From Schmidtea polychroa (Eukaryota): a stretch of DNA of 64,000 bases. Location: the NCBI GenBank assembly GCA_044892525.1, contig CM097885.1, positions 19,346,001-19,410,000 of the forward strand, given 5' to 3'. The notes under the pieces were generated by a model that was not told the DNA's origin, searched no databases, and worked only from the letters and a program-made list of their open reading frames with translations. Below are positions 4,151 through 63,400 of the stretch, piece after piece. The translations under genes were made by a program, and so were the position numbers. Each line of letters starts with the position of its first letter. Within the stretch, counting starts at the first letter, position 1.

Positions 4151-4249
4151 CCCTAACTTTCCCGATTCACCCTCATCACCCCTTTAATTTTTAAAAAGGG
4201 CAGGCCATAGGGGAAATGTTTTGTTAACACAGAAAAAATTACACATTCA

Positions 4250-15772: not shown

Positions 15773-15777
15773 ATATT

Positions 15778-25239: not shown

Positions 25240-25295
25240 TATACTGTCACATTATGAAAATAAATATAAAAACATAAAAAATCAAAACAGGATAT

Positions 25296-25322
25296 CCAAT
25301 AAAAAATTTTTTTCTAAAAATG
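25296..25322 (+). promoter_or_regulatory. CCAATAAAA-ATG motif (19 nt from CCAAT to ATG)
   Basis: Same spacing at 38062-38088 (+) and 1967-1941 (-). Confidence 0.55.
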
Positions 25323-29636: not shown

Positions 29637-29714
29637 TTTTTTAATAATAAAATGTCGACAATTAATTTAAGCAACTATAGCAACCTGATCTACTTTTTTA
29701 AAAATACACCCATT

Positions 29715-30323: not shown

Positions 30324-30331
30324 TTTAATAA

Positions 30332-31309: not shown

Positions 31310-31349
31310 TTATTAATAATTTAAAATGGACGGAGTCCCCTGAGAGGAA

Positions 31350-32087
31350 CTAAACCTGTTTCAAATGTAAATACATTGAAATCTCTTCTCCATTAAAATC
31401 AATCAATTCTCCTTCTTGATTAAGAATTTTAAAATTAATATCCATTATATATTTTCTACATAAAGGTAAATAATTTGGAGGATTCATTCTTTCAACTATT
31501 TTATATCCCATAGGAACTGTGTTTGAGGGAAAGGAATATAAAATATTACTTTGTTTACCATTATTATAAGAACCTGTTATACAATCGCAATGAATATTTA
31601 TTGTGTTTGTATTTATTATTTTTATAATATTTTCTGATGTAACTTCAGGTGTGGTATAATGGTTTTGTGTAAATCCTAAAATTGTTCTAAAGAAACTATT
31701 ATTTTGAAACCTAAGTCCTATATTCTTTCAAGTCATTATACATTTTGAAGTTGGTAAATCTATTTTAATTTCAATAGCTCCATTTGTTTTTTTAGAAAGT
31801 ATATTATTTAAATCTTATATCTTATAAGCCCCGGGTTCTATTATTATTATGTTATACTCCGTTTTTGGGGGGCTTACATAACTAAATGTGTTAATATCTT
31901 TAGTTATATTAAAAATAGTATTATAAGCACAAAACCATAATAGACCTAATTCATAATTTAAATTTTGATCTAATTTTATTGAATCTTCAAAATTTATAGT
32001 AAAGTCTGATTCTTTTGAATTTATAGATAAAGTTCTTGAATATTTATCTGACATTATGTTTACCATTTTTTTAAAATTATCTTCCAT
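31350..32087 (-). pseudogene. Minor capsid protein (penton), disrupted
   Basis: YNTIFNI...IEPGAY, then past stops ILGF, INIHCDCITGSYNNGKQSNILYSF, GYKIVE..PPNYLP, NQEGELIDFNGEEISMYLHLK. Confidence 0.85.
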
Positions 32088-32090
32088 TTC

Positions 32091-32576
32091 TTATAGTAGA
32101 GATTTTAAATCATTATAAATTTCTTGGATTAAGGAAGTGAAACAGTAGTCCCCTTTGGACAGAGTCCCTTGAGATTTATTCAATCTATACAAAACATATA
32201 AGCTTAAAATACCACATATTTTAGTATTATTAGGTTGAACTTGTAAAGAATTAAAAGTATAGTCTCTCTTCGAGCTTACTCCGGACAGATAGTCTTCAAC
32301 TTCTTTAGTGGGTTTAATCCCAAAAGAATCAAAGTAGATTGGGACTTCGTCCATATATATACAAACCCAATGAGATCCTTTTTCATTTGAATTTTGATAA
32401 TTGATTATTATATTCTTTGGAGTGACCCTTTGACCTTTGACCTTCGGACCTTTCAATTCATTATTCATTAATATTTTTATTTTTAAATTTAAATAATCTG
32501 CATAATCTTTTAAATCAAAATTTGTTTTTGCATTTATTCCAAATGTTTTTAAAAAATCTAATATTGAAGGAGTCAT
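32091..32576 (-). CDS. Adenain-like cysteine maturation protease
   Basis: IIN...GSHWV, YFDSFG, Q....ICG; intact ORF. Confidence 0.9.
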   Translation of the reverse strand: MTPSILDFLKTFGINAKTNFDLKDYADYLNLKIKILMNNELKGPKVKGQRVTPKNIIINYQNSNEKGSHWVCIYMDEVPIYFDSFGIKPTKEVEDYLSGVSSKRDYTFNSLQVQPNNTKICGILSLYVLYRLNKSQGTLSKGDYCFTSLIQEIYNDLKSLL

Positions 32577-33418
32577 TTTATATACTTATTAAATTTATCT
32601 TTTGAAATTATTCCTTGTTTTAACAAATCTTTAGAAATCTTTAAAATATCAGAATCTAAATTATTATGTCCTGCTTTTTTAGCTGCTAATAGTTTTCTTA
32701 ATTCAATAAAAAGATTGATTGGGTTTGCAGCCACAGGCATCCCCTTACCCTCTGTAACAACATAACCCCTTTCATTTTTATTTAAATAATTCTTTAAATC
32801 TTGAATATGTTTTGCTTTAGAACTACCATGTATTAATTTTATTAAGTTTAAAAATTTATCAATTTCTTCTTTCTTAACATCATCTGGAAGATATCCAGAA
32901 ATTAATCCATGAAAACCATCTGAAAGTTCAATGTCTACACGCTCTCTATTCATAAAAGTATTTGTTGAAATAATCGCTGGATTATTTTTTGAATTTAAAT
33001 ATATATAAAATTTTTGATTATTAATTGTTATTGTTTGAAAACCTCTAGGATCATAACCTATAGTAGGTATAATTGATTTAGCTAGTGATGTATTAATTTT
33101 AAAATTAACTGGAGTCTTAAGAGGTGTTAATCTTGAAAGAAATTCATCTTCTTCTAAATCAATAGTATTTCTACGTTTTCTTAAACCCATTAATCTTGAT
33201 AATTCCTTTTCAGAAGGTTCTATAGCTTTAAGTTCAGGGGTTAGAGGAGTTTCTATAGTTTTAAGTCCCTCTATAGCTTTAATTGTTGGCCCCTGTTGTT
33301 GTGTTATTACCTCATTTAATATTATAGATTCAGCATGTTGAGTTGTATCTTTTTTATTATATTTATCTTGTTCTGATTGTAATTTTTTTAAAAGTGCTAA
33401 TCTTTCTTCATATACCAT
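32573..33418 (-). CDS. Conserved Polinton protein of unknown function (possible core protein)
   Basis: Intact 281-aa ORF; C-terminal GKG...LRKLLAAKKAGHNN motif typical of this gene slot. Confidence 0.65.
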   Translation of the reverse strand: MVYEERLALLKKLQSEQDKYNKKDTTQHAESIILNEVITQQQGPTIKAIEGLKTIETPLTPELKAIEPSEKELSRLMGLRKRRNTIDLEEDEFLSRLTPLKTPVNFKINTSLAKSIIPTIGYDPRGFQTITINNQKFYIYLNSKNNPAIISTNTFMNRERVDIELSDGFHGLISGYLPDDVKKEEIDKFLNLIKLIHGSSKAKHIQDLKNYLNKNERGYVVTEGKGMPVAANPINLFIELRKLLAAKKAGHNNLDSDILKISKDLLKQGIISKDKFNKYIK

Positions 33419-33440
33419 TTTTATGGTATTAAAAATGGTA

Positions 33441-34052
33441 TCAATGGGGTTCGAAGGGCTTCAAGTATAAACCTTTACCATTTTTAGTTTTACAAAGGCA
33501 TCCATTCTTTAAAGATTTACATATTTTTTTTAAATCATCTTTATCTTTTGAAGATAAAGATTCAGATGTAGAAATTTGATTTTTTAAGAAATCATTTAAA
33601 CCTCTACCTTTATAAGGATCAAGATAGAGACCCTTTCCCTTGGACAGAGTCCCCTGAGACTTTTGACCTTCAGACAGAGTCCCCTCATATGGATTAAGAT
33701 AGAGGCCTTTTCCCTTAGCTTGCCCTACCTTCTTCATTGAATCGATTTCAGTTTGTAGTTTTTCTTTTTCTAGGTCTGTCTTTTGAGATTCTTTATCTTT
33801 TTGAACTGTAGTTGCAATTCCTCCAGCTATTCCAGCAGCACCTGATAAACCAGCAATGATTGCAGGTATTAAAGCAGCTAATGGAAGAATGCCGCCTTCT
33901 TTAGTCGAAGAGCCCTTCAGCTTCGCTCTAACTTGTTCTTTTACATGTTTTCCAATAAAATATTTTTTACCATCAATTACTACTGATTTATTTTTATTTG
34001 AATTTATTAATTCTTGCAAAGATTCTTCAGTAGAGGAACTCTTCGAGGTCAT
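33441..34052 (-). CDS. Adenovirus pX-like core protein
   Basis: EGGILPLAALIPAIIAGLSGAAGIAGG resembles the adenovirus pX GG-cleavage/hydrophobic helix; repeated GKGLYL.P motifs. Confidence 0.65.
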   Translation of the reverse strand: MTSKSSSTEESLQELINSNKNKSVVIDGKKYFIGKHVKEQVRAKLKGSSTKEGGILPLAALIPAIIAGLSGAAGIAGGIATTVQKDKESQKTDLEKEKLQTEIDSMKKVGQAKGKGLYLNPYEGTLSEGQKSQGTLSKGKGLYLDPYKGRGLNDFLKNQISTSESLSSKDKDDLKKICKSLKNGCLCKTKNGKGLYLKPFEPH

Positions 34053-34067
34053 TTTACAATAAATAAA

Positions 34068-34880
34068 ATGGATGTACGAAGTCCAAAAATTTGGAAACCA
34101 ATTTTAAATAGACATAAATCTAAATTTAATAATAAAGTATTTCCTGATAATTTTAGATTATTAATTGTTGGATCTTCTGGATGTGGAAAGAATGTACTTG
34201 TTTTGAAAATGTTACTTGAAGATGGTTTTTTAGATTATAATAATTTAATCTTTTATTCTACAACCATAAATCAACCAGAATTACAACTTTTGAAATGTGG
34301 ATTTGAAAATAAATTAACTAAAAAAGCTATAATTGATATTTTTAAAAATCAACATAGATGTCCTGAAGAGGTTTTTCAACCTTGTGATATGGTTGATTGG
34401 TATAAGGAAAAGATTTTAGAATCAGATATTAGTAATAAAAATGATTACATCTGTGAAGATGAGGGGCAGGCAGAGGCGATTCAAGTTTTATTCTCTAATA
34501 AACCTGAAGATGTTTTACATTGTGATTTACTTCCTAAAGATAAAAAGAATCTAGTTATATTTGATGATGTTGTTAACATGAAAAATCAAGAGATTCAAAA
34601 GAGTTACTTTACAAGAGGAAGACATAATAATTGTAATGTTATTTATATATCTCAAACTTATTATGCTTTAGATAAAAACTCTATAAGAAATAATTCTAAT
34701 TGTTTTAAATTTTTTAAATTAGATCGCCGTGATAAGAATATGATTTATAATGATTTATTTTCAAATGTTGAACCTGATAAGAATATGTTTGATATGTTTG
34801 TTGATAATCATTGGAGAGAAAAATATAATTATATTTATTTGGATAGAGAAGAAGCTGAAATATGGAAAAGTGTTTTTTAG
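34068..34880 (+). CDS. A32/FtsK-like genome packaging ATPase
   Basis: Walker A GSSGCGKN, Walker B VIFDD, RGRH, ISQ, IRNN; start placed at MDVRS after AAAATG. Confidence 0.92.
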   Translation: MDVRSPKIWKPILNRHKSKFNNKVFPDNFRLLIVGSSGCGKNVLVLKMLLEDGFLDYNNLIFYSTTINQPELQLLKCGFENKLTKKAIIDIFKNQHRCPEEVFQPCDMVDWYKEKILESDISNKNDYICEDEGQAEAIQVLFSNKPEDVLHCDLLPKDKKNLVIFDDVVNMKNQEIQKSYFTRGRHNNCNVIYISQTYYALDKNSIRNNSNCFKFFKLDRRDKNMIYNDLFSNVEPDKNMFDMFVDNHWREKYNYIYLDREEAEIWKSVF

Positions 34881-35670
34881 AAATCTGTTTTCTGTAACTC
34901 ATTATTATAAAATCTACCTAATATTTTTTCATTATTTAAATCAATAATGCTATATTGTATAATTTATTTTATTTATAATAAAAATTTCATTTGTCCATTT
35001 TGCTGTGAATCCTTTTTCAAATTTATTTTTATATTTAAATATTCTTACTCGGTCACCAATTTTAAACTTTGGTTTTTCAATAACATCATTTTCAATATTT
35101 ACCACTTTAATGGTTTCAGGATTTATGGAAGCATTTAAAGGTGTTGATTTTATAGAACTATGTACATCATTATTATATTCATTTACAATCTTTTGTAACA
35201 ATTCATTGTTCCATTTTTGTTTTCCAATAGCCGTAAAATATTTCCACATTTTATTTTTTAATGTTCTATTTAATCTTTCAACCACAACTGCTTTTCCTTC
35301 GTTTTCTGTTGAATATAATTTAATATCATTTTCATTTAAAAACTTTGTAAAAACTTTGTTATAAAATTCTGTTCCTTTATCACACCATAAATATTTTGGA
35401 ATTCTTTGATGTTCTTCAAATATATTTTCAAATGCTTCTGTAATTGAATATCCTGTTTTGGTTTCTAAACGTCTTGCAAAAGCAAATCTCGTATATAAAT
35501 CTATTACTGTTAAAATTATTTTATATTTTTCAGGGTCTGATGATTTGGTTGGCATAAAGACTAAATCTGCATGTTTGATCTTTTTCATGTACTTGAACTT
35601 TTAAATATTTTTTATTTTTTCTAAATTCATGGTGTAATTCGTTGGCATATTTTTTTTGTGATTCTGTTGG
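34878..35670 (-). pseudogene. RVE integrase (frameshifted, no chromodomain)
   Basis: YANELHHEFRK, ADLVFM, LTVIDLYTRFAF, WCDKGTEF, VVERLNRTLK, KFKIGDRVRI, then frameshifted GRFYNNELQK. Confidence 0.92.
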
Positions 35671-36239
35671 GGTAATAAACTAGTCTTGGATATATTCTCG
35701 AGGGATCTTTCAGCATCTGCTTGTTCAATAATCTTTTTATTAGCAACATCTTTTGCCATCCTTGGTAAACTAGCACCTATGAAAATCTTACCTTTCATTG
35801 CTAATTTAACTAGAGCTCTTTGAATCTTTTCTTGGGTTGATGGATTTTGGATACTATTTAAATCATGTATTAAATTAACATCTGCAACATGTCTATCTCT
35901 AAGATCTTCTGAATTGTAAGCAATATCATGTTTTAAAGCTGCTTGGTCGATTCTATTTATTGGTTCTTCTCCTTGTTTGGGATTATTATTTTCATCTAAT
36001 CTAATATCTAATCTTGTTCCTGGTCCGGTATAGTTGTGTTTAAATAAATGTCTTTCACCTGGATATTTTTCTGTAGTAAAAGGTTTTAATATTGAAGATG
36101 TCACTTTTGAAGATTGTAGGTCGCCTCCGGCTCGTGGAATCATGTCGCCTCCTATATGTTTTTTAGTTTTTAGATGACTTGCTTTATGATGTCTTGTAAC
36201 TTGACAATTACAACTTTCATATCTCCAATAGAGAGACAT
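35601..36239 (-). CDS. Parvovirus-type phospholipase A2 domain protein (probably the N-terminus of a PLA2-integrase fusion)
   Basis: HNYTGPGT (Ca-binding loop) and NRIDQAALKHDIAY (catalytic HD); N-terminal C-x-C...H...H finger. Confidence 0.85.
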   Translation of the reverse strand: MSLYWRYESCNCQVTRHHKASHLKTKKHIGGDMIPRAGGDLQSSKVTSSILKPFTTEKYPGERHLFKHNYTGPGTRLDIRLDENNNPKQGEEPINRIDQAALKHDIAYNSEDLRDRHVADVNLIHDLNSIQNPSTQEKIQRALVKLAMKGKIFIGASLPRMAKDVANKKIIEQADAERSLENISKTSLLPQQNHKKNMPTNYTMNLEKIKNI

Positions 36240-36256
36240 TTTAAAATGTTAAAATA

Positions 36257-37548
36257 TTAAGAATCTCCCCTAACATTTTCGATTATTGAAATCTTTCCAC
36301 CATATAATTTCATTTCTATTTTCTTTTCTTTTCTTCTAATATTAATGTATATACTTTAGCTTTAAAATTAGAATCCTTTGTTACATGAAGTGTAACATCA
36401 ACATTATTTATGGCTAGGCGATCATCTTGGTCTGAAACATTTATACAAAATATAGAATATAAATTTTTGAAATCTTCTAAACTTAATTGCGGTTCAACTT
36501 TGAAATCATAACATGTTTCAATATAATTTAGATATGGGAATATGTTTTCATTATTTTCAATATTAAATTCCATTCTATTTATTGGATAATAAGAACTATT
36601 TAATTGAATTTGGATTGTTTTTAAATTATCAACTCCAATCTTTTGAATAAACAAGTTGTTATTTTTTTGGAAAGATGAATCTACTTCTTTGAATCCAATC
36701 AAGATATATCTTGGTCGGTATGCTAAATTTGCTACCTTTATAGAATATGTTGAACCCTCTGTCATACTAAATTCACTACAGATTCTATTTAAATAATTTA
36801 CATTTATAGACTTGTTGGAATTTAATCTTTCAAGGAGTTTGATTTCAGAATGTGGATTTAATGTCCATTCAGGTATATGCAATTCAAGTGTTGATATTTT
36901 TAATTTAGCTGTTGTATCCTTATCTCCATAGAACAATCTTTTATCACCTTCTACTCTATTACAAACTAATTCTATAAAAACATTATTAAGTATACGATTA
37001 TAGTTTTGAAGGAATCCAAACTAGTGTTTTAATTCAAAATAACCTTCAAATTTTTTAGATTTATAAAGTTCAGCTCTTTTATAGTAACCATAATTTATAT
37101 CTAAACCATCTTTTTCTAAATCTCCTTTATTAACATCAGGAATCCAGCCTGTTAATTCACCATATTCATTTTTATAATCACAACCAGTCAAAATAAAATT
37201 TAACATTGTAGAATATACTCCGGGATGCAAAACAGTTTCAATTTCTGATGATCCTAGTTTTAATCTCATGTTGGAGAATAAATTTGGAAAGAAATTATTT
37301 TCTAGGGTTAGATCTTTGTTTGCTTCAATTTCTAATTCGATTTTATAATATAATTTGGCATTACAAATATCTATAGGGTTTGATGTTTGAAGAGATTGAA
37401 AAACTATATCACCCCTACGATTTAAGTTTGCAATAGATCCTGAAGTTGGTGAGATTTTAAGTACATCATTTTTCTTGATTTCATGAGTAAATTCTTTATT
37501 ATAATCAAGATTTAATTTATTTTTTTCTTGAATTTTTATATTATTCAT
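36257..37548 (-). pseudogene. Major capsid protein (double jelly-roll), one stop plus C-terminal frameshift
   Basis: ORFs 37021-37548 and 36316-36936 are in one frame; NLNRRGDIVF, NNFFPNLFSNMRL, RPRYILIGF, LNSSYYP, YSIFCINVSDQ. Confidence 0.8.
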
Positions 37549-37604
37549 TTTTATATATTAAAATTTACACACACAAAATAGGATTAATTAAATATATTAT
37601 GTAA

Positions 37605-37677
37605 GCCATTATAGCGGAGTGGGAATAGGCTTCAATTTTATCACCGGAGTACCGGGTTCAATTTTCGATTTTGGTCA
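37605..37677 (+). ncRNA. tRNA-like Pol III unit 1
   Basis: A-box TAGCGGAGTGG at 37612, B-box-like GGTTCAATTTTC, GCCA/TGGT end pairing, T7 run just downstream. Confidence 0.45.
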
Positions 37678-37848
37678 ATTTTTTTCGATATTTTCTTTTT
37701 CAACGGAATTTGATTCAGCGTACTGATTTTAGTATATATTTAAATTTTCAGATGGATCTGAGTGGAAGTTGTCGAGAAAATGAATAATTAATTATTAATT
37801 TCATCAATAAATAGTCACACATTAACAACTTATTTTATATTGAGTATA

Positions 37849-37920
37849 GCTCTAATAGCTTAGTGGTAATAGCACTGGACTGCATTGCCAATACCAATGG
37901 GTTCAAATCCCATTTCGGTC
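37849..37920 (+). ncRNA. tRNA-like Pol III unit 2 (Cys-GCA-like)
   Basis: A-box TAGCTTAGTGG, D-stem GCT/AGC, TGGA-CTGCATT-GCCA arm, perfect T-arm ATGGG-TTCAAAT-CCCAT, TTTT downstream; weak acceptor stem. Confidence 0.6.
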
Positions 37921-38085
37921 ATTTTCTTTCAAATCTTTTTTAACGAAATATTGATCAGCATACTCGATTTAGTACTTGTACAAATTTTTAAGGAGATTGG
38001 TCAACGGCAACTCTTGGAAATTTAAGATCAAAAACGTTTTAACTACCAAAAATTAATATATCCAATAAAAAAAATATTTATAAAA

Positions 38086-38351
38086 ATGGATGAGTTAAAA
38101 GAATGAGAAATGAATTGAATGAAGTTAAACATAAGAGAATGAAAAGAAGAGAAGAAGAACCATTAGAATACATCAAAGAGTTGATGGTAGATAATGAAAA
38201 GTATCGACATTTTTATATGAAGGCTGTAGATGTTGCTGATATAAGATTGAAGAAAATGAAACAATTACAGGAAAGAGTTAAAGAACTTGAATCGATTATT
38301 TATAGTCTAAAAAATAACAATAATCCAAACCTAGATAGCGCAGTGGGCTAG
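38086..38351 (+). pseudogene. Small coiled-coil protein, 1-nt frameshift after MDELK
   Basis: ATG 38086 follows the CCAAT-N19 motif; ORF 38103-38351 continues in a shifted frame. Confidence 0.5.
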
Positions 38352-39336
38352 ACTGGCACAGTGGTTCAAATGGATGGTGGTTCAAATCCTAACTGTGGTT
38401 AGTTTTTTTTCAACATAAAATAATATTAAAAATTTGAAAATAATAGTGTGGGTATCTTAGATTTATATTTTATTTTATTTTTTTTTATTTTATTTTATTT
38501 TATTTTATTTATTTTATTTATTTTATTTATTTTATTTATTTTATTTATTTTATTTATTTTATTTATTTTATTTATTTTATTTATTTTATTTATTTTATTT
38601 ATTTTATTTATTTTATTTATTTTATTAATTATTTTATATTTAAACATAAATATGAAAAAAAACTTATTGAAACGGGTGATGGTGGCGAACCGGTAATTAT
38701 CGCCACCTGTCTTTCGAACACCCCCGGATCGATTCTTTAATGTGCACATTTATTTCTCAGTTGTTTTCGGACCTCTTTCGGATTCACTTTCGAATTCATT
38801 TGTACTTTCGAGCAGCACGCTTAAAACGCCGATGAAATCGTATTCGAGCGAGAAGCGAATAATAAGGTGTGCTGCTATTATCGAATTGATTCTGATGTAT
38901 GAGTCTGGCCAGCTTGTATATTGGAAGAGATTTGATAAACGAAAGAGGTTGATAAATAAAAAAAATATCCGGATCAAAAACTGTTGAGAGGACAGTGAAA
39001 AAAAACAAAAATACCACTGTCCTCTCAGAGCAGTTTTACTATTTTTCATTTATTTTTTAATTTATATAATTTAAAATCAATAATCTGATAAAGATCAACT
39101 CCGGAGTTTGATTGATCCCAAATAGCCCTCTAACTTTTTCATAATGCCATTTTCTTTTCTATTCACTTTTTAGTTTGAAGCTTTTGAGTTTGAGGCTTTA
39201 AAGATTAAGGGTGGTTGTTGTTTAAAATATGGGGTTAAAATACTATAAAAGCATAGGTTTTATGTTGTTTTTCTAATGGTTTAAGCGTAATGTAGGTATG
39301 TTTTTGTTGGGAGGGCTGTTTGGGTTGGGTATATAT
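38310..39336. repeat. Right TIR of inner Polinton (last 10 bp missing)
   Basis: Ends GGGTATATAT; ACACACTACT is absent. Confidence 0.93.
38329..38400 (+). ncRNA. tRNA-like Pol III unit 3 in right TIR
   Basis: A-box TAGCGCAGTGG (38336), B-box GGTTCAAATCC (38379), ACC/GGT ends, T8 at 38403. Confidence 0.55.
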
Positions 39337-48201: not shown

Positions 48202-48521
48202 TGTAGTGAGCCATTACACGGCCTTAACAATATCTATATACCTATTATACTATATTATATTATATTATATTACATTATATTATATATATATATATATATA
48301 TATAAATGCGCGGTCACCAACGAACAAGGACCAATCAGAACACAATTATAGTCAATCAAAAGTCGTGCGATCAGCTAATACTTCTACTTATCAATCAGGC
48401 TCTATTAATCAATCTCAGACGAGTAAAGCAAATTCGATGCCATGTTATCATTATCAAGATAAACTGTATTCGGCTCCCAATAGTTTTAGTGTTGGCTCTC
48501 ATAGACCAACACTCTCATCCA
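48202..48521 (+). repeat. 5' LTR (last bases and PBS deleted)
   Basis: Begins TGTAGTGAGCC; matches 52744-53049 up to CTCATCCA, then runs directly into gag. Confidence 0.9.
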
Positions 48522-49229
48522 GAACCTACAGCTGCCGTCTTCACTAAATACTTTAAGACGCAAACTTTGGGCAGCAGAAAACCATCACAGTTCTTGCAAC
48601 ACGCTATGGCGGAACGAACGCAAATACATCCGGAGGCTGCGGCGGATCAAAAACTCTTGAGGCATTTTTTTCTGTCTGCTTTACCGCCACACGCACAACA
48701 AATTTTAGCGCTTTCGTCAAGAGCAGACGTGGTAGAGCTAGCAAAGATGGCCGACAAGATTAACGAAGTCGTGCCACTTGGTCCGCAACCAACTTGCTCT
48801 GTGCAGTTAAGTAGCAGTACTAACCCCGAAATTTTACCTTCTTCTTCTTCTTCTTTAAAACCTTCGACCGAAGAAGCCTTACTTTGCGCTATTACAGGCC
48901 TCACTAAACGCATCAGCGAGCTTGAGAATAGCATGTCCACCAGGCGGACAAATGACGACAGGCAATATGCCCAAAAATCACACTTTGTGCAAAATACTCT
49001 TCAACGTTCACCTTTCCCTGCAACCAGGAACCTGTGCCGTTTCCATTTTAAGTTTCGTAACAAGGCACGGTTCTGCCATCTAGGTTGCAATTGGCGAGAT
49101 AAAGCACCATCCTGTCAGATACTTGACAAATGTATATACCACGACAGGTTTGGAGATAAAGCCTTAAAATGCTTCGAAGGCTGCTCCAATTACAAAAAAC
49201 CTAAAGCAAGCAATCAAAAAAACTTCTAA
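48522..49229 (+). pseudogene. Gypsy Gag, N-terminus deleted
   Basis: LGSRKPSQFL, LAKMADKI, two C..H..F...A..C...C boxes. The N-terminal part of the predicted ORF 48306 is LTR sequence. Confidence 0.85.
49217..49223 (+). promoter_or_regulatory. -1 ribosomal frameshift slippery site A AAA AAC
   Basis: In gag frame two codons before the TAA; pol lies in the -1 frame. Confidence 0.7.
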
Positions 49230-52200
49230 TGCCACCACTTCTAGCGGCAGAGGTGGGAGGCAAAATTTCATCAAAATCAGATTTATTTTTAATAGAAGTA
49301 CAGTCAAACGCTTTTAATATATTGTCATCTCCTTCCAACAGACTAAAATTCCTCGTCAACACTGGCTCCAGCTTGTCGATCTTACCTAAAGTGTACCTTC
49401 CAGACCTCAACACTGTCGATATTTCTTTGAAGGCCGCAAACGGTAGTGTTGTTGAGACTTTAGGTTCAAAGACAATTGCTTTCTCGTTGCCATTTCTGTC
49501 CGACCAATTATTTGAGTGGAAATTTTATATAGCAGAGGTTATTATCCCCATATTAGGATCTGATTTTTTAAGCGCTAACGAACTACTCGTCGATTGCCGT
49601 GGACGCACTTTAAGGATAAATAACCAATTAAACTGCAGCACTATTCCCTCAAACATCTTTGAAGATCCACAACGGATAGGAACGGACGATATAAATACTA
49701 CTCCGTCGAAAACGGTTATAACAATCGAACACCCAAAAATAGCCGTAGATATTATTAATCGGTGTTTTAACACGCCAATAAGTGACGTTTCGAAGCCGCT
49801 TTACTGCCACACGATCGACACAACTTCATCTTTACCAGTTAGATGCAAAATTAGACCACTGTCGAATGAAAAACTCGAATTTGTACGTTCCGAGTTCACT
49901 AACCTCTTACATGAGGGTACCATTCGGAGATCTAAATCTCCATGGTCATCGCCATTGCACCTGGTCCCAAAAAAAGATGGCACTTTCCGTCCGTGTGGCG
50001 ACTATAGAAACCTTAATGCTATTACGGTACATGATTCCTATAGCATGCCGCTTGTTAGTGATATCCTTCACCGTCTTTCAAAGGCAAAGATTTTCTCCAC
50101 AATCGACCTCGTGAAGGCGTACCATCAGATACCCGTGCGAGAGTCTGACATAGAAAAAACAGCCGTAATAACTCCGATCGGACTTTTCGAGTACGTGCAT
50201 ATGCCATTTGGCCTTCGGAATAATGCACAGACCTTTCAAAGGTATATTGATCAAGTTTTAATGGACCTGCCTTTCGCAGTTCCATATATAGACGACATTT
50301 TAATCGGATCACCTGACTTAGAGACGCATATAACCCATCTAACAAGAACTTTAACAGCACTGCGGCAATACAACCTTAAGGTAAACGTCGATAAGTGTAC
50401 CTTCTTCCAACACGAGACTCGTTTCCTGGGACATTTAATTTCCGGAGATGGAATCCGACCTCCTCCGGATAGACTAGATACTATAGCCAAATTCCCACTT
50501 CCAAAAACAGTTTCACAACTGAGAAGTTTTTTGGGAACGATAAACTATTGTCATCGTTTTATTCCAGGGGTTTCTGACATTTTGTCACCTCTTTCAGGTC
50601 TTGTTTCAAAACCAAAAAAGTCTTTAGTGTCATGGAGCGATACCACACTCAGTGCATTTGAAAACGCTAAGTCGGCACTTTCGAAAATTCAAACACTCCA
50701 TTTTCCCAATGCTGATTTACCTTGGAGTCTGACCACTGATGCATCAAACGTTGCTATTGGTGCAGTATTACACCAATTACATAATGACATTTCTGAACCC
50801 TTAGAGTTTTTCTCAAAGAAACTTTCTTCCGCACAACGGAAATATTCGGCTTTCGACCGAGAACTCTTAGGCATATATCTTTCAATCAAACATTTCAAGC
50901 ACTTGCTTGAAGCTCGTCCTTTTGTCATCTACACTGACCACAAACCGCTAACTTATCTTTTTGGAATGAAAGACCCATCTCCACGACAACAGAGGCAAAT
51001 CAGTTATATTTCAGAATTTTCTTGCGAAATACGCCACATTGCCGGCAAAGAAAACGTTATTGCAGACTGTCTTTCCCGCAGTACCAACGCTATATGGCAC
51101 GATCCGATATTTCCAGTACAGTGCCTCCGCGACAATCCACCTTCGACAAAAGATCTAGCTGCTTTTGGCGATAAGCTTAAAATCGTGGACGGAGTACACT
51201 TTGACTCGTCTTTATCAGGTGTTTTAAGACCGATTTTGCACGATTCCTTACGGAAATTAGCTTTCCACTCCATTCACGACTTACATCATCCAGGTTCGTC
51301 GGCTACCTTCAACCTATTGCATTCACATGTGGTTTGGCCAGCAATGAGGCACGATATTAAATTGTGGGTGAGTCAGTGCATCGGTTGTCAACAACACAAG
51401 ATCACTAGACACACTAAGCCACTGATGATTCACTATCCGACCGGAAATAGGTTCGAAATTCTTCACATCGACCTGGTCGGCCCCTTGCCTTCTGATCGCG
51501 GTTTTTCTTACTTATTAACCATGATTGACCGGAAAACGCGTTGGTTTGAGGTTATTCCTCTAAAAAACATTTCTGCTGAAATTGTAGCAAATTCAATTTT
51601 GCAACATTGGATTTCTAGATACGGTGTTCCGAAATCAATAATCACAGACAGGGGAACTCAGTTTGAATCCCAGTTATTTCAACAACTAACTGAAAAGCTC
51701 GGTATACAACACCTCCGTTCAACTGCTTACCATCCTCAGACAAACGGCATGATCGAAAGATTTCACCGTACTTTGAAGACTTCTCTAGGAATACTTTCAT
51801 CGAGACTTAATTGGACTAAAGCTTTACCTTTTGTCCTTCTTGGTTGGCGTAACACACCCTCCAGGACTACCGGAACTACACCGGCACAGTTACTTTTCGG
51901 TTCTTCAACATCGTTACCTAACGAATTAGTTGATTTCGATAACGCTCCTACCTTTGAGGAATTAGATATGGCTAGAGATCATTTTCTTTCGATCGATAGC
52001 AACCCACAGTTTTCTTATGCTTCCTCATATACACCGTACGTCCCAAAGTCCTTCAAGGACGCAACTCACGTTTATCTTCGTAATATTAGGGATTCAGGTC
52101 TCAAACCGAGATATTCGGGCCTTACAAATTGATCGACATTAAGGATAACAATGCTCACATCGTTATTAACGGTGTTACCCAAAATATAAATTTGTGCCGA

Positions 52201-52593
52201 CTTAAACCGGCTTTTATGATTTCTGATGACGTGGACGAAGACAAACTTCACTCTGATTTAGAGAAAGTCTCAGTCGAACCCATTTCAACTACGTCGAACG
52301 AAAACCTTTCAGTAGAACCTGCCATGGACTCAAACGAAATCGCGCGTACCATGATCACAAACTACCAACGCGATGAAAATTTAGCTACAGAGAATACACA
52401 TTCAGCAACAACAAATTCACTAAATCTTCGCTCAATTGTTTCGAAACCCGACAAGCAGCGAACCGCGAAAAATGTGAAACATAGTGATAAGATTTGGGTG
52501 CGCCAAATTGGTGAAGACATTTCCAAACCTCCTAGACTTGCCAGAGTCTATTCCAATGAAAACTTGACACATCTGATGCTGAAATTCACTTAA
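49229..52593 (+). pseudogene. Gypsy Pol (protease, RT, RNase H, integrase)
   Basis: FLVNTGS (catalytic D replaced by N), YIDD, TTDAS, HIDLVGP, TDRG, IERFHR; frameshift at the GPY motif near 52120. Confidence 0.93.
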
Positions 52594-52743
52594 CTTTATT
52601 CCATATAATCAAATTCCTTTGTAGACACTATCCACCTTTGATAAATTGTCACTACTCTTCGACTTACATCTTGTTTCTGGTAGATCTTTCATCAACCTCT
52701 ATTCTTGAGTCCCTGTGCGCTCCGCGACTTCCCGTGGGGCTGA

Positions 52744-53054
52744 TGTAGTGAGCCGTTACACGGCCTTAACAATATCTATATACCTATTATACTATATTAT
52801 ATTATATTATATTACATTATATTATATATATAAATGCGCGGTCACCAACGAACAAGGACCAATCAGAACACAATTATAGTCAATCAAAAGTCGTGCGATC
52901 AGCTAATACTTCTACTTATCAATCAGGCTCTATTAATCAATCTCAGACGAGTAAAGCAAATTCGATGCCATGTTATCATTATCAAGATAAACTATATTCG
53001 GCTCTCAATAGTTTTAGTGTTGGCTCTCATAGACCAACACCCTCATCCATTACA
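52744..53054 (+). repeat. 3' LTR
   Basis: TGTAGTG...CATTACA, preceded by G-rich GTGGGG. Confidence 0.9.
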
Positions 53055-54688: not shown

Positions 54689-56330
54689 CAGGGGTAGGCA
54701 ACCTATGACCCGTGGGTCACCGAGTGACCCATTTGATAATTTCAAGTAGTTCCGAAAATAAAGTATAAGATATACATACATTTTTTACTTTTTCCCAAAA
54801 TATTTTTGTCGCAAAGTTATGAACGTACCAAATTTGAATCCAGTATAACATATAAAAATATCACTTAAAGCCCCACCCCCGCCTGACTGGATATAAAATC
54901 GGCCGATAGTATGCGGAATGCGGCAACATGTCCGAACAAATAGTACCATTCATGTACACGCGCGACGTTTTATCAGTTGTATGTCAGTTATATTTATAGC
55001 ACGTGTAGTACAGTATTATTTAAAAAATTACCATGAACAAACAAAAAGCAAAATAGAGATTATTTCAAGATGTGTGGACAGAAAAGTATTGGTGTATCGA
55101 TAATGGTGACAAATTGCTATGTACTTTATGTACAGATATAATTACCGCCAGGACTTATAATATTGAGCGACACTTTTCTTCAAAACATAAAGATGTGAGT
55201 GAAATGGAAAATGAAGATAAATCTGAATACTTTACTAAACGTGTATTAAATTTTGGAAAACCAAATAAATTCTTAAAGAGTTTTGTTACCAGCAACACTC
55301 ACGCAACGTCTGCCAGGTTTATTGCAGCTCTTAGCATGGGTACCATCGAAAATCATTTACAGACGGGGAGTTTTTGAAAAACGCATTCATAAATTGTTCT
55401 GAATACTTATTTAATGACTTCGCAAATAAAAAACAAATAATTGGGAGAATCAAAGAAATGCCATTATCAGCTAGAACAGTCCAGTGTCGCGTTGAAGATA
55501 TGGCCAAGAATATGATTTGTTATCTTGTGACATAATTAGTTTTGCAGTTGACGAAAGTACCGACATAAATAGTATTGGTAGGCTTGCAATAATTATTAGA
55601 TTTGCATCAATAAATAGCTCAAATGTCAATGAAAAACTATGCGTTCTTGCTTTAATGAATGACACCACCAAAGGTACTGATATTTTTCGTCAAGTACAAG
55701 AGTTTACAAATTTCAAAAATGGGCATATATTGGATTTAAAGAGTAAATTGTTTTCCATAACAACCGACCGCGCTCCAAGTATGAGAGGAAAAACTGTTGG
55801 ATTTGTAAAACTAATGGAAAATTAACTTGGCCGTTCACTTTTATCGTTTCATTGTATCATACATCAAGAAAGTTTATTTGCAAAGGCATCTACACAAAAA
55901 CTTAAGGATGTAATGGAAAAAGTTGTTAAGATCGTAAACATGATAATAACACGATCAGCATTAATACACAGGCGCTTTAAAGCTTTTTTTGGAGGAAATT
56001 GAATCGAAATATGGAGATTTGTTATTAAATTCTGAAATACAATGGTTGAGTCGGGGTAAAGTTCTTAATAGATTTGTAGAGTGTTTTGATGATATACAAA
56101 TATTTCTTCACGAAATGGTCACAAGTTCAACATCAGAGGAGCCATTGATATCGTAGAGAAAGTTTATAAAGTTTATTCAACTATGTTTGTAATTATTTTC
56201 TTAATAAAATATATCTTATTATTCACTAAAATGCTGTTTTAATACGAAAATATCTCTGACCCAAACGTCTCTTTAATACTCGTATTTTTATTAATTTTGA
56301 CCCGTGGCCAAAAAAGGTTGCCGACCCCTG
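54689..56330 (+). mobile_element. hAT Buster/Charlie-family transposon, internally deleted
   Basis: TIRs CAGGGGTAGGCAACCT / AGGTTGCCGACCCCTG; 8-bp TSD ATCTAAGT with central TA. Confidence 0.93.
55033..56120 (+). pseudogene. Buster-type transposase fragments
   Basis: CTLC...NIERHF..KH (BED finger), AVDESTD, TTDRAPSM, HCIIHQE, WLSRGKVL. Confidence 0.9.
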
Positions 56331-57233: not shown

Positions 57234-57759
57234 ATAAAATTTAGTGATTAGGAAGAGATGTTTGCAAATTTGCAGATGTTTTTTCTGAGATTTAGCTAAT
57301 TTTCAAGTGGTGTGATTTCCAGTGTACCGGGTAAAGAATGCAATAGAGTTGAAACAGCAATATTGTATACTTACCTGGCTCGAAGAGAAAATGTCAGATT
57401 TGCTAATTATAATCTTGCGTTTGACTACTTTGAGTATAATATCAAGTAAATCATCGACAACAATTAGGAAAAGAGTGTAAAATAGTCATTCTTTTCATGC
57501 TCGGTGCCTTTAACAATGTATTAAAAAATGGAAAACTACGATGATTTTTTACTGTTTTTACTTGTTTAGGGTTTTTGATTGGTTTAGGTTTTGGATTTTT
57601 TGAGATGAGATCCATTGATGGAAATTTTCTGTAACAAGTATTTTAGGAGGTGTATAACTCGTTTTTGGTGGAACTTTAATTTTTTCTTATTCAGTACCTT
57701 TTCCAAAATTGGTAACTCTAGCTCTCAAAAACATGATCAGTTAAACATGTTTTCAACTT

Positions 57760-58379
57760 TGTTTAGAAACCATTGACTCTTCTTTATTGAAAATATCGGT
57801 TCTCACTCGTAAATCATCAGGTCATTGTTGAGTGAAATCAAGAAATAAATATCCATGAGGTTGTTTTGTAGCATCTTGAAATGCACTGATAAGAAAATTA
57901 CGATTATTTGGATACGCCTGTCTTGCAAGAAAATCAATAACTTTTGCATCTCTAGAGTTTTTAAAATCGACCAAATATTGAACAATTAAATTACGAGTTC
58001 TATGTGCACCGCACTGATGAAATAAATTTTGAGTTATAAAAATAATCGTTACACCTACGTGTCTACTGATTTTGGTAAATAAATTATTGAAATTCTTTTC
58101 TTTATCAGCTTCTCGATACAAATCATCAATAATTATGACATCTCCCATCTTTAGTCTACTGCACCACTTTTTATCAAATGCCTTTACTATTTTCGTATTT
58201 TTTAATTTACAGAAAATATCGTGAGTCAATCCGTGTTCTTCATCAGCACCTCTATGCCAATAAATTTTGTTAAATTTTGATTTGAATAAATGTGATTTTA
58301 TTAATTTGCAAACAAACAAAGTTTTTCCACTACCACTTGGTCCGACTATTTGATAAACAGCATCATTTCTTAGTTCCAT
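57760..58379 (-). pseudogene. Polinton packaging ATPase (premature stop near C-terminus)
   Basis: GPSGSGKT, IIIDD, LFTKISRH, ITQNLF, FKNSRD, LARQAYP, DATKQPHGYLFLD. Confidence 0.9.
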
Positions 58380-58487
58380 TTTAATATGTATATTTAAAAT
58401 TTGATATTGTTTATATCGTAAAGGAAAGAATGTTTTAATTATACTATTATAATATATATACTCGATTTTTATAAATATTCACTAGAT

Positions 58488-58999
58488 ATGTTGACAAATA
58501 TTAATTATAAGGGTCGTGAGTCTTTGGAAACTATTGGTATGATGAATTCCCTAAGTGTAAACCACAACAATATGTTGACAAAACTGGAAAATATACTATT
58601 ATATTTTTCAAAAACGGTAAATGTCGTATAATGGGTTGTAAGAAACCTATCGAATTCGAGAATTTACAATATAATATCAAAGATATTCAAGTTCAAAGTC
58701 TTACTATACCTACCAAGGTTGAACAATCTATTAATTTGAATAATTTAGCAAAGTTATTAGATGGAGATTGTATATATGAACCTGAATTATTCTCCGCTCT
58801 GCGTTATACAAAATATAACCCACTGTGTGTAAATATTTTTTCGAGTGGTAAAATAATAGTACTAGGTATTAAAAATTTAGATTTTCATACTATTGTTGAA
58901 GAAATTATAAACGATGTAAAGGATTTGATTGGATCTTTAACAATTTCTACAAGTATAAGTAACGAGGATTTGCTTGAATATTTATTCAACAATGACTGA
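58488..58999 (+). pseudogene. TATA-binding-protein-like gene, one frameshift near the 5' end
   Basis: Repeat 1 TIIFFKNGKCRIMGCK (in frame upstream of ATG 58631); repeat 2 INLNNLA...YEPELFSALRY...VNIFSSGKIIVLG; ATG 58488 gives MLTNINYKGR in another frame. Confidence 0.8.
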
Positions 59000-59096
59000 A
59001 CATGATGGTAGCTGTTTTTTATTTTGAATTTGTTGATTTTTGTTTAGAAACTATATTAAAAACTTTGATTGATAAAATTTTGATTTTTATCCGAAT

Positions 59097-59399
59097 TTGA
59101 ACAATTCCATAATGTATTGTGCTCCAGAAGTCTTATTTTATGAAATCTATGAAAAAACTGGAATAAATGTCATGAAATTAATTCATATGGATCATTCTAC
59201 GATTACGTGCTATACTGATGATGTTGAAAATTGTGATTTTTGTAAAAATTATATATGTAATACTTGTGGGGATGATAGTTGTACGTGTTTTGTGAATCTA
59301 CAGAAAAGAGAAATAATTCATGCATTACTTGTGGAATTGCAAAAAATGTATTGTTGTAAGAAAATATTAAATATACATGTAATTATATTTGTTTTGTGA
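59097..59399 (+). CDS. Cys-rich small protein, possibly a fragment
   Basis: CDFC...CNTC...CTC; start uncertain. Confidence 0.35.
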   Translation: MNNSIMYCAPEVLFYEIYEKTGINVMKLIHMDHSTITCYTDDVENCDFCKNYICNTCGDDSCTCFVNLQKREIIHALLVELQKMYCCKKILNIHVIIFVL

Positions 59400-59941
59400 T
59401 AATATTACCTTAATTAACCTATAACATTTAAAATTCATTTCTTTGTATATCATAAATCATTTCAGACTTTGTTAATTAGCATAAAATGGATCACGTTTTG
59501 GTCATGTCTGTCTGTCACTTGAAACTTTGTTTACAATGAAATTATTATAAATATCTGTTTCAATTCATTAAATATTACAACTACAAATGGACCATCATTT
59601 TACAGGTTTGTTGTCATTTGCAAATATTCCATTTAATAGTTTTTAAATTTAGGAGTATTGAAGAGAAAAATACAGATGCCGCTCAGGAATTCGGAAAATG
59701 GAAATTTAAAAAATTGACATTATCCCTGGAAACCTTGCTCAATTTTCGAGTGGATACAAAAAAGTCAGTAGAATTCTTGCAATACAAACTAAATTATTTG
59801 TATTGTCCAATTTCTTATATATTTAAGGTAAGTTTGTATCAATTATTTTGGATTTTATTATTTATTTATTGTTAGGAACCAGCAACTTTAGAAAAATGTT
59901 TCTACAATGTTCGATTTTCCAAAATCAAGGTCAATGATAAG

Positions 59942-60217
59942 ATGATATTAGTACAATTATATCAGAGAATGAACGAAAATATTGAATTTAATGACGAAGA
60001 TATGTTTATTAAATGCGATTTGGATATGATTCTCAATGGCGATAAGATGAGTAAAATAACCGGCATGATAACCGTATTAATTCAAGGACATAATGTAAGC
60101 AGAGACCAAACCAAGCCAATTTGGAAAATTATAAAAGCCGAAGAAACGGTTGACGATGAACATTGTATATATTTTAAATTTTTAAATACATCTTTATTAG
60201 TGTTTGGTTGTTTTTAA
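59942..60217 (+). CDS. Hypothetical protein or exon
   Basis: Protein-like composition only. Confidence 0.25.
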   Translation: MILVQLYQRMNENIEFNDEDMFIKCDLDMILNGDKMSKITGMITVLIQGHNVSRDQTKPIWKIIKAEETVDDEHCIYFKFLNTSLLVFGCF

Positions 60218-60255
60218 ATAATAATATAATAAAATAATTAGAGTTCTAAAATTTA

Positions 60256-60450
60256 TTAATCATCATATTGATTTTTACAATCTCTTTTCATTATATTTTG
60301 AACAATATGATCAACACAATTAGGAAAATCATTAGATTCATCTTCTTGTTTATTTGATGATGTATCAGTTGTAGAATTCTCTATACATGACTTAATTTCT
60401 TCACTTTTCAGATTCATCAGTATATGACATATTTTCTTCGTTAATTTCAT
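60256..60450 (-). CDS. Hypothetical small protein
   Basis: Protein-like composition only. Confidence 0.25.
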   Translation of the reverse strand: MKLTKKICHILMNLKSEEIKSCIENSTTDTSSNKQEDESNDFPNCVDHIVQNIMKRDCKNQYDD

Positions 60451-63400
60451 CGTCAGAATATGGCCATTTTAATTTGGGGCTGACTGTGACAATTTACAAA
60501 CTACAGCGCCTGCCCCTTTGAGGCGGCGACGGGTGGCGTGAGGCGAGCGGAAGGGCGTGCGGGCGTGTAGGTTGTTGATTTTAATTTTTTATTTGAATAA
60601 CTTGGACATGCATGTTTTGTGTATGATTTTAAAAAAATAGACTTTAATTTTGGGACTTTTTAAAATTTGGGAAATTTTTGAGTAGGGGAAATTTGGGAAA
60701 TTTTTTTTTTGGGACTTTTTAAATTTTGGGAAATTTTTGAGTCGGGAAATTTATTTTGGGGATCTTGTGATTTGGAAATATTTTGTAAATATTCCATATG
60801 ATTTTTTCTAGTAATTTGTTGATTTTTTCCAAGTATTTTTATATAAAAAATTTCTAAGGGTTGTGAATTAAAAATTTTCAAATTTATCCAGGCATTTTTA
60901 TTTTTCAAATTTTTTCTATATCAAGTGGTGTAACCTTCACTTTAAAGTACTTTCATATTTTTTAAAATATTTTTCTAAGTATTTTATTAAAGCTTTTGTT
61001 CATTGTCCCACACTGTGTTGAAGAATATGATTTTATTTCTATAATATAAAATTTTCTATGTTTGATAATATATGAATGATATTAAATTATGGTATTTGAT
61101 GTTGAAGTTTGAGACTTTGGAGCTCATTTTCCATAGAAACTATACATTTTTACTATATATAGATTATATAATTTTATGATCCTTATAAAATTCCGAGTTT
61201 AAAAAAAAATTCTCCAGGGGGGGGGGGGGGGGGGGTAGTGGTGTGGATGGGACATGGTGTGGAAGGGACATATCCATCTACTTCTGACAACTTAGAAATT
61301 CTGAAATGGAGCATTTCTTTTCTCTATAATTCAACTGATTTAACCTTCATAGAGTCTTGTGGTCATTTTTGACCAAAAACATAAACCTAATATTGTAAAA
61401 TTTATTACTTTTATTCTTGTTTTGTAGTTTTAGGAAACTAAAATATAAATGTTAAAAAGTAAAAATACATTTTATGAACTTTTATTAAATAAACTAGATA
61501 TTTGTCAGAAATTACCGTTAAACGTTTTGTCAAACTTTTGTTTACTTGCTCAATTTGAGTAATATATGTTTATATTAGATAATGTTGTTTTCGCAACACA
61601 CAAATCTTTATAAATTATATTTATTGGTTCTCTTTGATCCATTCTTTTTAATGCTTTTCATATTTACCAATTACCTTTTTCATCTTTCTTTTGCCGTCCA
61701 ATAAAACAAAAAAATAAAAATATATATCATTACAATTAATTTGAAAATTTAAGGTGAAATTTGTGTATTAAATTCCATTTATTGTAAAATAAAATTCGGA
61801 TAATTATTATAATCCAAAAGATAATTAAATAGAATTATCTCTGTCAAAAAAAAGTATCCAAAACAATTTCTTTTATTTAAAGAATTTATTTTATTCTAAA
61901 TTCAAGAATTTATAATTGTCTTAAATGGGAACTTATTCTAAGATTCAAGAGAAATTCAAATCGAAAAGGAAACTTGGTTTCCGCCTACGTAATTAAATTC
62001 AAAAAAAATAAAATTTTATTATTTATGAAGAAAATAAATAAATATTTAATAAGACGTTTATCAAGAAATAGTATTTTTATTCTATTTGATCAATGAAAAC
62101 AAAACAAATCTTTTACTTTTTGTTTTGTCTCACAAAATAATTAGGAAAATAATAACAATAATTTAAATATAAATTAATGTACTATTATGTGAATTTATTT
62201 ATTAAATTTGGAAAAAGTCAATTAATTATTTATTAATTATTTAAAAATTAAATAACATAAATATAATTTAAAATGTAACTCCGGATTTAGGAAGGAACTT
62301 AAAATATTTATAAATAAGAGCAAATGTTCAACTTTATTTTATTTTCATTAATTTACATCGAAAAAAATTTCTATAAAATAATATTAATGATTTAAAAATA
62401 ATTTTATTTATGATAATAATAATTATTCGATAAGTAAAAATTATTCACATTTATGATATTGTTTTTACTAAGTGATGCATGGTAATGTAATTACTAATTT
62501 TAATCTTCAATATTCTCCCTTACGTTGGTGATATTTGTAACTTAGAACTTTACTTTCGATGGTATTACACAACAGATACACAAAGATTTGCGACTATGAA
62601 ACCTTAACAATCCTTAGGTTTTGAGAAAATTCAAAAAGAAATCTTTGAAAAAAAAATGAGGCATGCATTCTAGAGCACTGTGAGTTTTACCACGAGTCAT
62701 TAAAAATCATGGCGCTTTAAATAAATAACTGCTAACTCCTGGTGCATCAAATGATTCATGCTTTCCATTAGTCACTCAGAATCAAATGTGTGTTCACATT
62801 TTTTATTTTGCAAAAGCAGTTGGTGTTCTTTGTTTATCTTTCTCTAAGGACTCTTAATTGATTTGATATTATTATTTTATTTGTATTCGTCTCATAATTT
62901 TTACCCCCCCCCCCCACATACCCGTTGTTCATGAATCAAGTCCATTTTTGATTTTTTAAAGGATTTGAAATTTTATCGATTTCCATATTATAGCCGTTTA
63001 TTTTTGAAAGTGACTTAAGTCCATTTATCTTAAAATTATGAAATATTTTGTCATTGTATTAACCAATTAATTTTCGTTTTAAAAAATCCTAGTGATTTTA
63101 AATATATAATTTACCTCAAAATGAAAAGGTTACGTAAAAATGATATTATTTAGATAGCTAACTTTATTCTTTTGATAAATGGACTTAGGCCACTTTCATA
63201 ATAAACGATTTATTTAAATTTCTTTGTATATTTAAGTTTTTTTCGCCATATTCAGAATAAGAAACTCAATACAATAAGTTTTATTTGTACCTCAAAATCA
63301 CAACTGTTTTGAATTACTTTTAGAAAATAAAATGCTTTCGTTTAATACAATGGACAAGTCACACTATGAGACAACAACTCTAGCAGAATGAATCTGATTT

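Follow-up and report, generated by a model that had tools for sequence, protein, structure and literature searches.

Polintons (Mavericks, adintoviruses), as presented in the parts of PMC8502044 covered here, are the closest described counterparts of the element reported in this work, which shares with them the terminal inverted repeats (TIRs), a putative PolB-like gene, an rve integrase, an adenain protease, an A32/FtsK-type ATPase and a double-jelly-roll capsid. The TATA-binding protein (TBP) is not among the core adintovirus genes given there (Starrett et al. 2021), which agrees with the statement of the first-pass annotation of our locus that TBP does not belong to the standard Polinton gene set. 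The label "TBP" does occur in the legend of Fig. 5 of the same paper, the text sections of which do not discuss TBP where they deal with the elements, and one of its supplementary files gave no TBP match; a figure label in PMC8502044 has therefore already flagged, in print, a TBP-like gene for some element of this kind. This label was the only relevant item in the searched literature on polinton/maverick and TBP, and within the same scope we found no published description of the TBP clade reported here, of its rewired surface or of its promoters; subscription papers, Repbase reports, figures and bioRxiv supplements lie outside that scope and may name the gene.

Most nucleocytoviruses and mirusviruses with TBP-like proteins encode their own RNA polymerase. 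These proteins provide the best viral structural matches to the Polinton protein (hereafter mini-TBP), with Foldseek E-values of 2.7e-8 for the TBP of Heterosigma akashiwo virus and 5.8e-5 for the asfarvirus B263R homolog, yet the named ones are 7–18% identical to it in sequence. The other group of interest comprises the herpesvirus TBP mimics that serve TATT late promoters, i.e. KSHV ORF24, EBV BcRF1 and HCMV UL87, as described in part of PMC12529657. With them mini-TBP shares the TBP fold, a polar DNA-binding face at V122, V161 and L205 (yeast numbering; ORF24 has polar residues at these positions according to Table 1 of that paper), a virus that lacks its own RNA polymerase and a variant TATA box ahead of late genes, although here "late" is judged by position only (60/90 genes vs 0/62, see below). 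ORF24 is a protein of 752 aa with extra domains that depends on partner proteins; F99 is present in it, but the acidic residues that contact TFIIB are not (PMC12529657, in the part covered), whereas the Polinton protein is a bare core of 150–170 aa in which the stirrup is kept. As the structural likeness to BcRF1 is weak (Foldseek E-value 0.011), the herpesvirus mimics are a parallel, and mini-TBP, which as proposed works like them, is not a member of their group.

The locus and its state

The window analyzed is a stretch of 64,000 nt from Schmidtea polychroa (contig CM097885.1). The first-pass annotation described in it an intronless TBP-like gene of about 170 codons with both TBP repeats, facing a packaging ATPase gene on the opposite strand. 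This arrangement is borne out: the ATG of the TBP gene (58488..58999, + strand) is at 58488, that of the ATPase gene (57822..58379, – strand) at 58379–58377, the divergent spacer between them (58380..58487) measures 108 bp and carries both types of candidate promoter discussed below, and both quoted repeat motifs are found in the TBP gene, the first repeat being trimmed. The assignment to TBP also stands, but the length of 170 codons applies to intact copies elsewhere, and the copy in the window is frameshifted near its 5' end, as judged from the frames, the Pfam match and the other copies. The frame opened by the ATG at 58488 closes with a stop that ends at 58631; most of the coding sequence is found in another frame, 58520–58999, therefore the frameshift must fall within the first 20 codons. 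The Pfam TBP profile (PF00352) matches 58520–58996 (E-value 8e-16; 58.1 bits for the window frame and 62.5 for an intact copy, at a cut-off of 22.9), the match being to the C-terminal repeat only. The ATPase, of the A32/FtsK type, is matched by the Pox_A32 profile (E-value 9.5e-6) and ends early, after 185 codons vs 208 in most other copies.

In the spacer, a candidate late promoter box, TATAAACA (58408..58415, – strand; variants named alongside it for comparison: CATAAACA, TATAAAAG and TATAAATA), is supported by the motif count over relatives, and its ATAAAC core begins 35 nt upstream of the start codon of the ATPase. On the other strand, the canonical-type TATA sequence TATATATA (58453..58460, +), 35 nt before the TBP ATG, is a candidate early promoter that the host would read; it belongs to a class enriched in the relatives, as does the initiator-like TCACT (58479..58483, +), although at this single AT-rich site TATATATA may be due to chance.

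Comparison with other copies identified the rest of the element: a decayed basic ORF of 177 codons downstream of the ATPase (57397..57800, –), at the left break of the remnant (about 57395); a broken Cys-rich ORF (58992..59399, +; 122 aa in other copies), which overlaps the TBP stop; remnants of two small right-arm ORFs of 77 aa (+) and 87 aa (–, acidic) within 59876..60468; and the decayed right TIR (60491..61282), of which 60491–60785 matches the other copies at 75–84% and the end near 61282 looks family-like by eye only. In total, the remnant covers 57392/57397–60475 at 85–87% identity to other copies, together with the parts of the right TIR at 75–84%. Thus, the TBP gene in the window is broken and the element is a dead remnant. 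To its left lie a Gypsy-type retrotransposon (48295–53049; 227-nt direct repeats at 99%, an open pol frame of 975 aa) and a decayed SPIN-DOC/hAT-like element (55057–56156). Elsewhere in the window (15077–19392), decayed integrase, penton-like, ORF120 and capsid genes show 69–73% DNA identity to the TBP-bearing family; ATAAAC precedes the capsid gene and no TBP remains nearby.

The element family in the source genome

Searching the 781-Mb genome gave 3978 first-look candidates, 150 of which were scored. The 149 scored copies other than that in the window are about 95% identical, and a single one has an internal stop; an exact 24-mer of the TBP gene occurs 303 times in the genome, its reversed control not once. 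Of the 29 best-scoring other copies, 27 have the full frame of 170 codons, although intact copies are over-represented in this set. Six copies, read as separate stretches, revealed an element of about 16 kb with TIRs of about 1.2 kb at 92–95% identity; four of them exhibit AGTAGT...ACTACT ends with a 6-bp target duplication, while in the remaining two the longest inverted match lies away from the terminus.

The element encodes a RING protein, a polymerase-like protein of 1300 aa, a C5 protease, the capsid protein, a penton-like ORF, an rve integrase and the ATPase, with the TBP gene and the Cys-rich ORF on the other strand. Profile matches were obtained for Peptidase_C5 (E-value 7e-7), Pox_A32 (7e-7) and rve (2e-5, below the cut-off). 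The 1300-aa ORF exhibits an exonuclease-type HN..YD motif and a K...N...G motif and matches the polymerase of a neighboring Polinton (E-value 1e-73), but gave no Pfam PolB match and left two motif patterns unmatched, so that it is labeled polymerase-like, indirectly. The capsid was assigned through a model of the L052 homolog (57% identical to the window family), which matches the iridovirus, PBCV-1 and mavirus capsids (E-value 7e-15), i.e. the double jelly roll. The 355-aa ORF, which gave no Pfam or NCBIfam match, we take to be penton-like (the single-jelly-roll minor capsid type) from its position and its resemblance. The C3HC4 RING gene lies at the left end of the element (L041:3458-4015), with its 3' end inside the TIR, and the integrase gene of family A (L042:2438-3610) contains a variable (ATT)n tract that preserves the reading frame in several copies and may represent either an intron or an insert read in frame. 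Poly(A)-like loose ends of single contigs near positions 4153, 6640 and 7030 of L042 were considered as transcript evidence and set aside, two of them being at genomic A-runs.

Four TBP-bearing families are present in this genome, the TBPs of the three others being 54–60% identical to that of the first, and in all 13 TBP-bearing stretches taken from them the TBP and ATPase genes are head-to-head. The ATPases of the families are 83–94% identical and the box is unchanged, while the TBPs are at 54–60%. In family C (L142, L143, L154), the ATPase and the capsid are 91–94% and 90–91% identical to those of family A (L042), and the TBP just 57–58%; TBP at this level beside ATPase and capsid at 90–94% suggests that the right arm was exchanged between the two families.

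Relatives outside the genome

A word-based search returned 107 protein homologs among 153 candidates, most of them of 144–165 aa, and a HMMER search gathered 127 clusters at E ≤1e-10, in which the Polinton TBP family is mixed with cellular TBPs; the atlas search with mini-TBP returned TBP clusters only. In metagenomes a relative is encoded in 182 of the 375 candidate stretches. The metagenome set comprises the best 80 of these 182 loci, with 10 of the 80 TBP frames dropped for stops or a length below 125 aa; as many loci come from few samples, they are not independent. Of the 80 loci, 38 hold a Polinton hallmark gene beside TBP; when only the 35 contigs of at least 3 kb are counted, 26 do. The distant elements of the clade retain 32–33% identity in the polymerase, 26% in the capsid and 36–40% in the ATPase.

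The first-pass annotation had allowed for the TBP–ATPase adjacency being peculiar to one locus. It is not, as both genes occur in 13/13 genome stretches and in 27 metagenome loci, but the head-to-head order is local to the families of this genome: among the 27 loci, TBP is upstream in tandem in 24, head-to-head at a gap of up to 400 bp in one, opposite and distant in one, and downstream of the cassette in one. Head-to-head order was thus rejected as the key feature. The position of the TBP gene varies among loci, including placement after the protease gene, and the other flanking ORFs vary by lineage.

Among the more unusual finds, the TBP alignment search of viral_contigs retrieved one giant-virus-like TBP (L049), a family member (P0197) carries an additional repeat resembling the C-lobe, and two TBP loci fall in prokaryote bins. 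One of the latter, L167 (JANOGQ010000345.1), belongs to a bacterial metagenome bin and contains an entire Polinton cassette in which the TBP gene follows that of the protease; it is probably a binning contaminant.

Structure and conserved residues of mini-TBP

The structure of mini-TBP was predicted with high confidence (pLDDT 96), and residues 1–152 of the model align to residues 66–240 of yeast TBP (1ytb) over 150 residues with a Z-score of 12.9 and rmsd of 2.8, as anticipated if the protein had the two-lobed saddle of TBP. Comparison with cellular TBPs (PF00352; yeast 1ytb, human 1cdw) was extended to 72 family sequences, with yeast residue numbers assigned via an offset to the canonical sequence that is consistent with the structural alignment; the list of DNA-contacting residues agrees with Table 1 of PMC12529657. 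Common to both are the saddle fold and N69 (68/72), P191 (65/72) and the intercalating phenylalanines F116, F190 and F207 (72/72 each), as well as the acidic stirrup, E186 (71/72) and E188 (72/72), which is predicted to contact TFIIB; a TFIIB role of stirrup glutamates is established, with E184 and E188 named in the covered part of PMC12529657.

On the other hand, mini-TBP has about 150 core residues and a shorter N-lobe, and constitutes a separate clade with a long stem branch. No conserved phenylalanine corresponds to yeast F99 (5/72 sequences have a Phe somewhere in this stretch, where the alignment is ambiguous), which leaves DNA kinking at this end in doubt. The DNA-binding face differs from the cellular one by the invariant replacements V122R, T124M and L205N (72/72 each) and the near-fixed V71N (67/72), N159S (66/72), V161T (67/72), I194R (62/72) and V203C (53/72), so that of the canonical minor-groove set N69 is kept, V213 is kept in 47/72 and T215 in 8/72 sequences, and V71, V122, T124, N159 and V161 are replaced. 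By profile and fold mini-TBP is a TBP-family protein, though it departs from the canonical members in two features, the set of four intercalating phenylalanines and the minor-groove residues. I194, V203 and L205 are the positions altered in the altered-specificity mutant TBPm3, and the TBP N-lobe contacts the 3' half of the box (both from the covered part of PMC1636458). A face that is fixed, yet different, points to a different target sequence.

The C-lobe is of normal length and only the N-lobe is trimmed. Between N69 and F116, cellular TBPs have a median span of 48 residues, against 37 in the near and 45 in the distant clade, and the helix-2 region counts 35, 21 and 30 residues, respectively; with the distant-clade values lying between the other two, the loss within the N-lobe appears to have been gradual within the clade.

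Two classes of promoter motifs

Upstream regions, 287 in number, were thinned to 161 non-redundant ones; as they derive from related elements and few samples, the counts below are not independent. In an unbiased count of all 6-mers over 84 non-redundant regions upstream of cassette genes, the top rank went to ATAAAC, at 53 of 84 vs 4.9 expected. Within 80 nt of the start it was found in 28/29 ATPase, 10/11 capsid, 8/10 penton-like, 6/6 ORF76, 4/5 ORF177 and 2/3 protease genes, in 8/18 integrase, 2/8 ORF120 and 1/3 polymerase genes, and in 4/62 TBP genes. The ATPase boxes start mostly at –45 to –31, and the box persists in the distant clade, where the ATPases are 36–40% identical. The extended form YATAAACR precedes 60 of 90 virion-cassette genes (shuffled mean 1.9, maximum 5) and none of 62 TBP genes, and the last base of the core across the 90 cassette genes is strongly skewed (ATAAAC 54, ATAAAT 9, ATAAAA 1). 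In five cassettes, the gene strand carries 9–14 boxes vs 3–5 expected, and the other strand is without excess.

The TBP genes exhibit the opposite pattern: canonical TATAWAWR lies upstream of 30/62 (shuffled mean 7.3, maximum 12), initiator-like TCAYW upstream of 38/62 (mean 9.1) and CCAAT upstream of 11/62 (mean 2.8). In 18 of 25 cases TATA and initiator are 30–32 nt apart. Cassette genes show no enrichment of canonical TATA (13/90, mean 7.9) and no clear excess of the initiator or CCAAT over shuffles. The contrast is also present in metagenome loci alone, although canonical TATA before TBP genes is rarer in the distant clade (5/19 vs 25/43).

A TBP-less Polinton in the window (24299–39336), unrelated to the TBP family (790-nt inverted repeats at 98%; an ATPase with at least 142 near-identical genome matches), served as control. 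It gave no TBP profile match, ATAAAC precedes 1 of its 12 ORFs, and neither strand shows an excess over the shuffles (2 vs 8.0 and 6 vs 4.2 expected). The control represents a single family; two scans of viral_contigs with ATPases yielded no further TBP-less loci, and those from the same genome were near-identical copies of one control family only.

Proposed function of mini-TBP

Combination of the residue survey and the promoter counts suggests that mini-TBP is probably the element's own late-gene initiation factor, which would read YATAAACR and thus provide a one-protein switch from early to late expression. Host TBP and Pol II would transcribe the TBP gene of the element early. The polar, rewired DNA face of its product would then bind YATAAACR, so that the altered N-lobe would sit on the 3' half of the box, the half with the non-canonical C, and the retained E-P-E stirrup would recruit host TFIIB and Pol II to the virion genes. 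In cellular TBP, the helices of the N-lobe dock partners such as TFIIA, TAF1, Mot1 and Brf1; their loss would remove these docking sites and may let the element escape host control. The stronger version, in which mini-TBP alone reads YATAAACR and recruits TFIIB and Pol II, making this the smallest known viral late-transcription system in a broad Polinton clade, we regard as standing slightly above an even chance. Several observations count against the late-factor reading: the box is weak before the integrase (8/18) and ORF120 (2/8), the TBPs of the genome families have diverged to 54–60% while the box stayed the same, the F99 phenylalanine is missing, canonical TATA is scarcer in the distant clade, and the control comprises one family.

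Perhaps the box is read by host TBP or a paralog, and the element's protein acts as a decoy or repressor, dampening host or early transcription through its binding to TFIIB or DNA? Wild-type TBP has been crystallized on a C(-25) variant of the AdMLP TATA box (PDB 1qn3, as stated in its title), and since it thus binds C at this position in vitro, host TBP is still a candidate reader; the host also has at least six further TBP-like loci, and a protein that retains the TFIIB stirrup while having lost F99 and the N-lobe helices might serve as a decoy. However, the DNA face of mini-TBP is not decayed but fixed in new residues (72/72 at three positions), the base that is A or T in host boxes is C in this one (ATAAAC 54/90 vs ATAAAT 9 and ATAAAA 1), the same elements place canonical TATA before the TBP gene itself, and box and protein stay paired across widely differing hosts. 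A decoy is therefore unlikely in our estimate, and between the two options offered by the first-pass annotation, a basal transcription factor of the element's own and a decoy, the former is better supported because a promoter box to match it exists.

Somewhat less probable is that mini-TBP reads the box only in complex with further proteins of the element, in the way that ORF24 requires its partners (PMC12529657, covered part). The candidate partner would be the Cys-rich ORF, which overlaps the TBP stop and is present in three of the four genome families, but it is missing from family C, was detected in none of the 80 metagenome loci, and its atlas matches all score below 0.9; the other flanking ORFs differ between lineages, and mini-TBP, unlike ORF24, retains the acidic TFIIB stirrup. 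A non-transcriptional role in DNA binding, e.g. bending during replication, integration or packaging, with the box read by something else, is quite improbable: the TBP gene is usually near the packaging ATPase and the TBP fold occurs also in rolling-circle initiators (weak matches), but the gene changes position, including placement after the protease gene, the stirrup glutamates are conserved (E186 71/72, E188 72/72), and the box precedes start codons, mostly at –45 to –31.

As regards the basal factors of the host, the search for TFIIB found a Brf1-like protein as the best TFIIB-family match and a canonical-looking TFIIB split by introns. There are also intronless, divergent TFIIB-like genes of about 301 aa (L163:4575-5477, L164:4585-5487), with 13 similar matches clustered on C1 and C3, i.e. 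the set of basal-factor paralogs is expanded by TFIIB-like genes.

Origin of the gene

The TBP of the host is intron-bearing and 74% identical to the canonical one; the host also has at least six divergent TBP-like loci (L130–L135, L137), some of them intronless over the core. A tree of 77 rows places 29 loci with Polinton context together with 16 relatives that lack such context in a single clade (SH-aLRT 99, stem 0.93), separate from the host, eukaryotic and archaeal TBPs, and in a tree of 26 rows the 12 Polinton rows are grouped with support of 100/100. The AU test on the 26 rows rejected a topology in which two genome families were forced together with 7 host and eukaryotic rows (p=1e-37). 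The giant-virus-like TBP (L049) falls outside the Polinton clade, its placement being unstable between the trees.

The mini-TBP gene is under purifying selection, with dN/dS mostly 0.1–0.3: 0.19–0.36 between genome families (six pairs), 0.12 for the window copy against its own family, and, among 19 non-overlapping metagenome pairs, 0.11–0.23 in 15, with 0.38 and 0.46 in two others, 1.07 in a near-identical pair and one pair saturated. The phylogeny and dN/dS proposed by the first-pass annotation thus both speak against a decayed host retrocopy, and its own counter-explanation, a decayed retrocopy of host TBP or TRF2 with an ATPase link unique to the locus, failed on both counts. Capture of a decayed host TBP or TRF retrocopy, which would suit an intronless gene that is broken in the window, is practically negligible in view of the 303 exact 24-mer copies, the four families in the genome, the 107 homologs elsewhere, the AU rejection of a clade with host TBPs and the dN/dS of 0.12 between the window copy and its family. 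The gene is not a host retrocopy but a module conserved throughout a broad clade of Polintons.

Conclusions

It has long been asked whether the Polintons of animals are genuine viruses whose life cycle is staged, and by what means their capsid genes are switched on when the elements have no RNA polymerase of their own. A TBP under a host-type promoter, with a variant box before the virion genes, supplies a concrete mechanism made of one small protein and one 8-bp site. The system is real, general and mechanistically suggestive. For work on DNA recognition by TBP, it provides a naturally occurring TBP of putatively altered specificity, which differs from the cellular protein at the three positions that were mutated in the laboratory variant TBPm3. 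If the proposed mechanism is true, mini-TBP would have arrived independently, as a second case, at the solution used by herpesviruses, but by a path that runs through TFIIB instead of bypassing it, and with its box it would form an orthogonal TBP–promoter pair; it would be direct evidence that these endogenous elements keep a staged virion program, and it would put the capsid and packaging genes beyond the reach of the host's TBP regulators.
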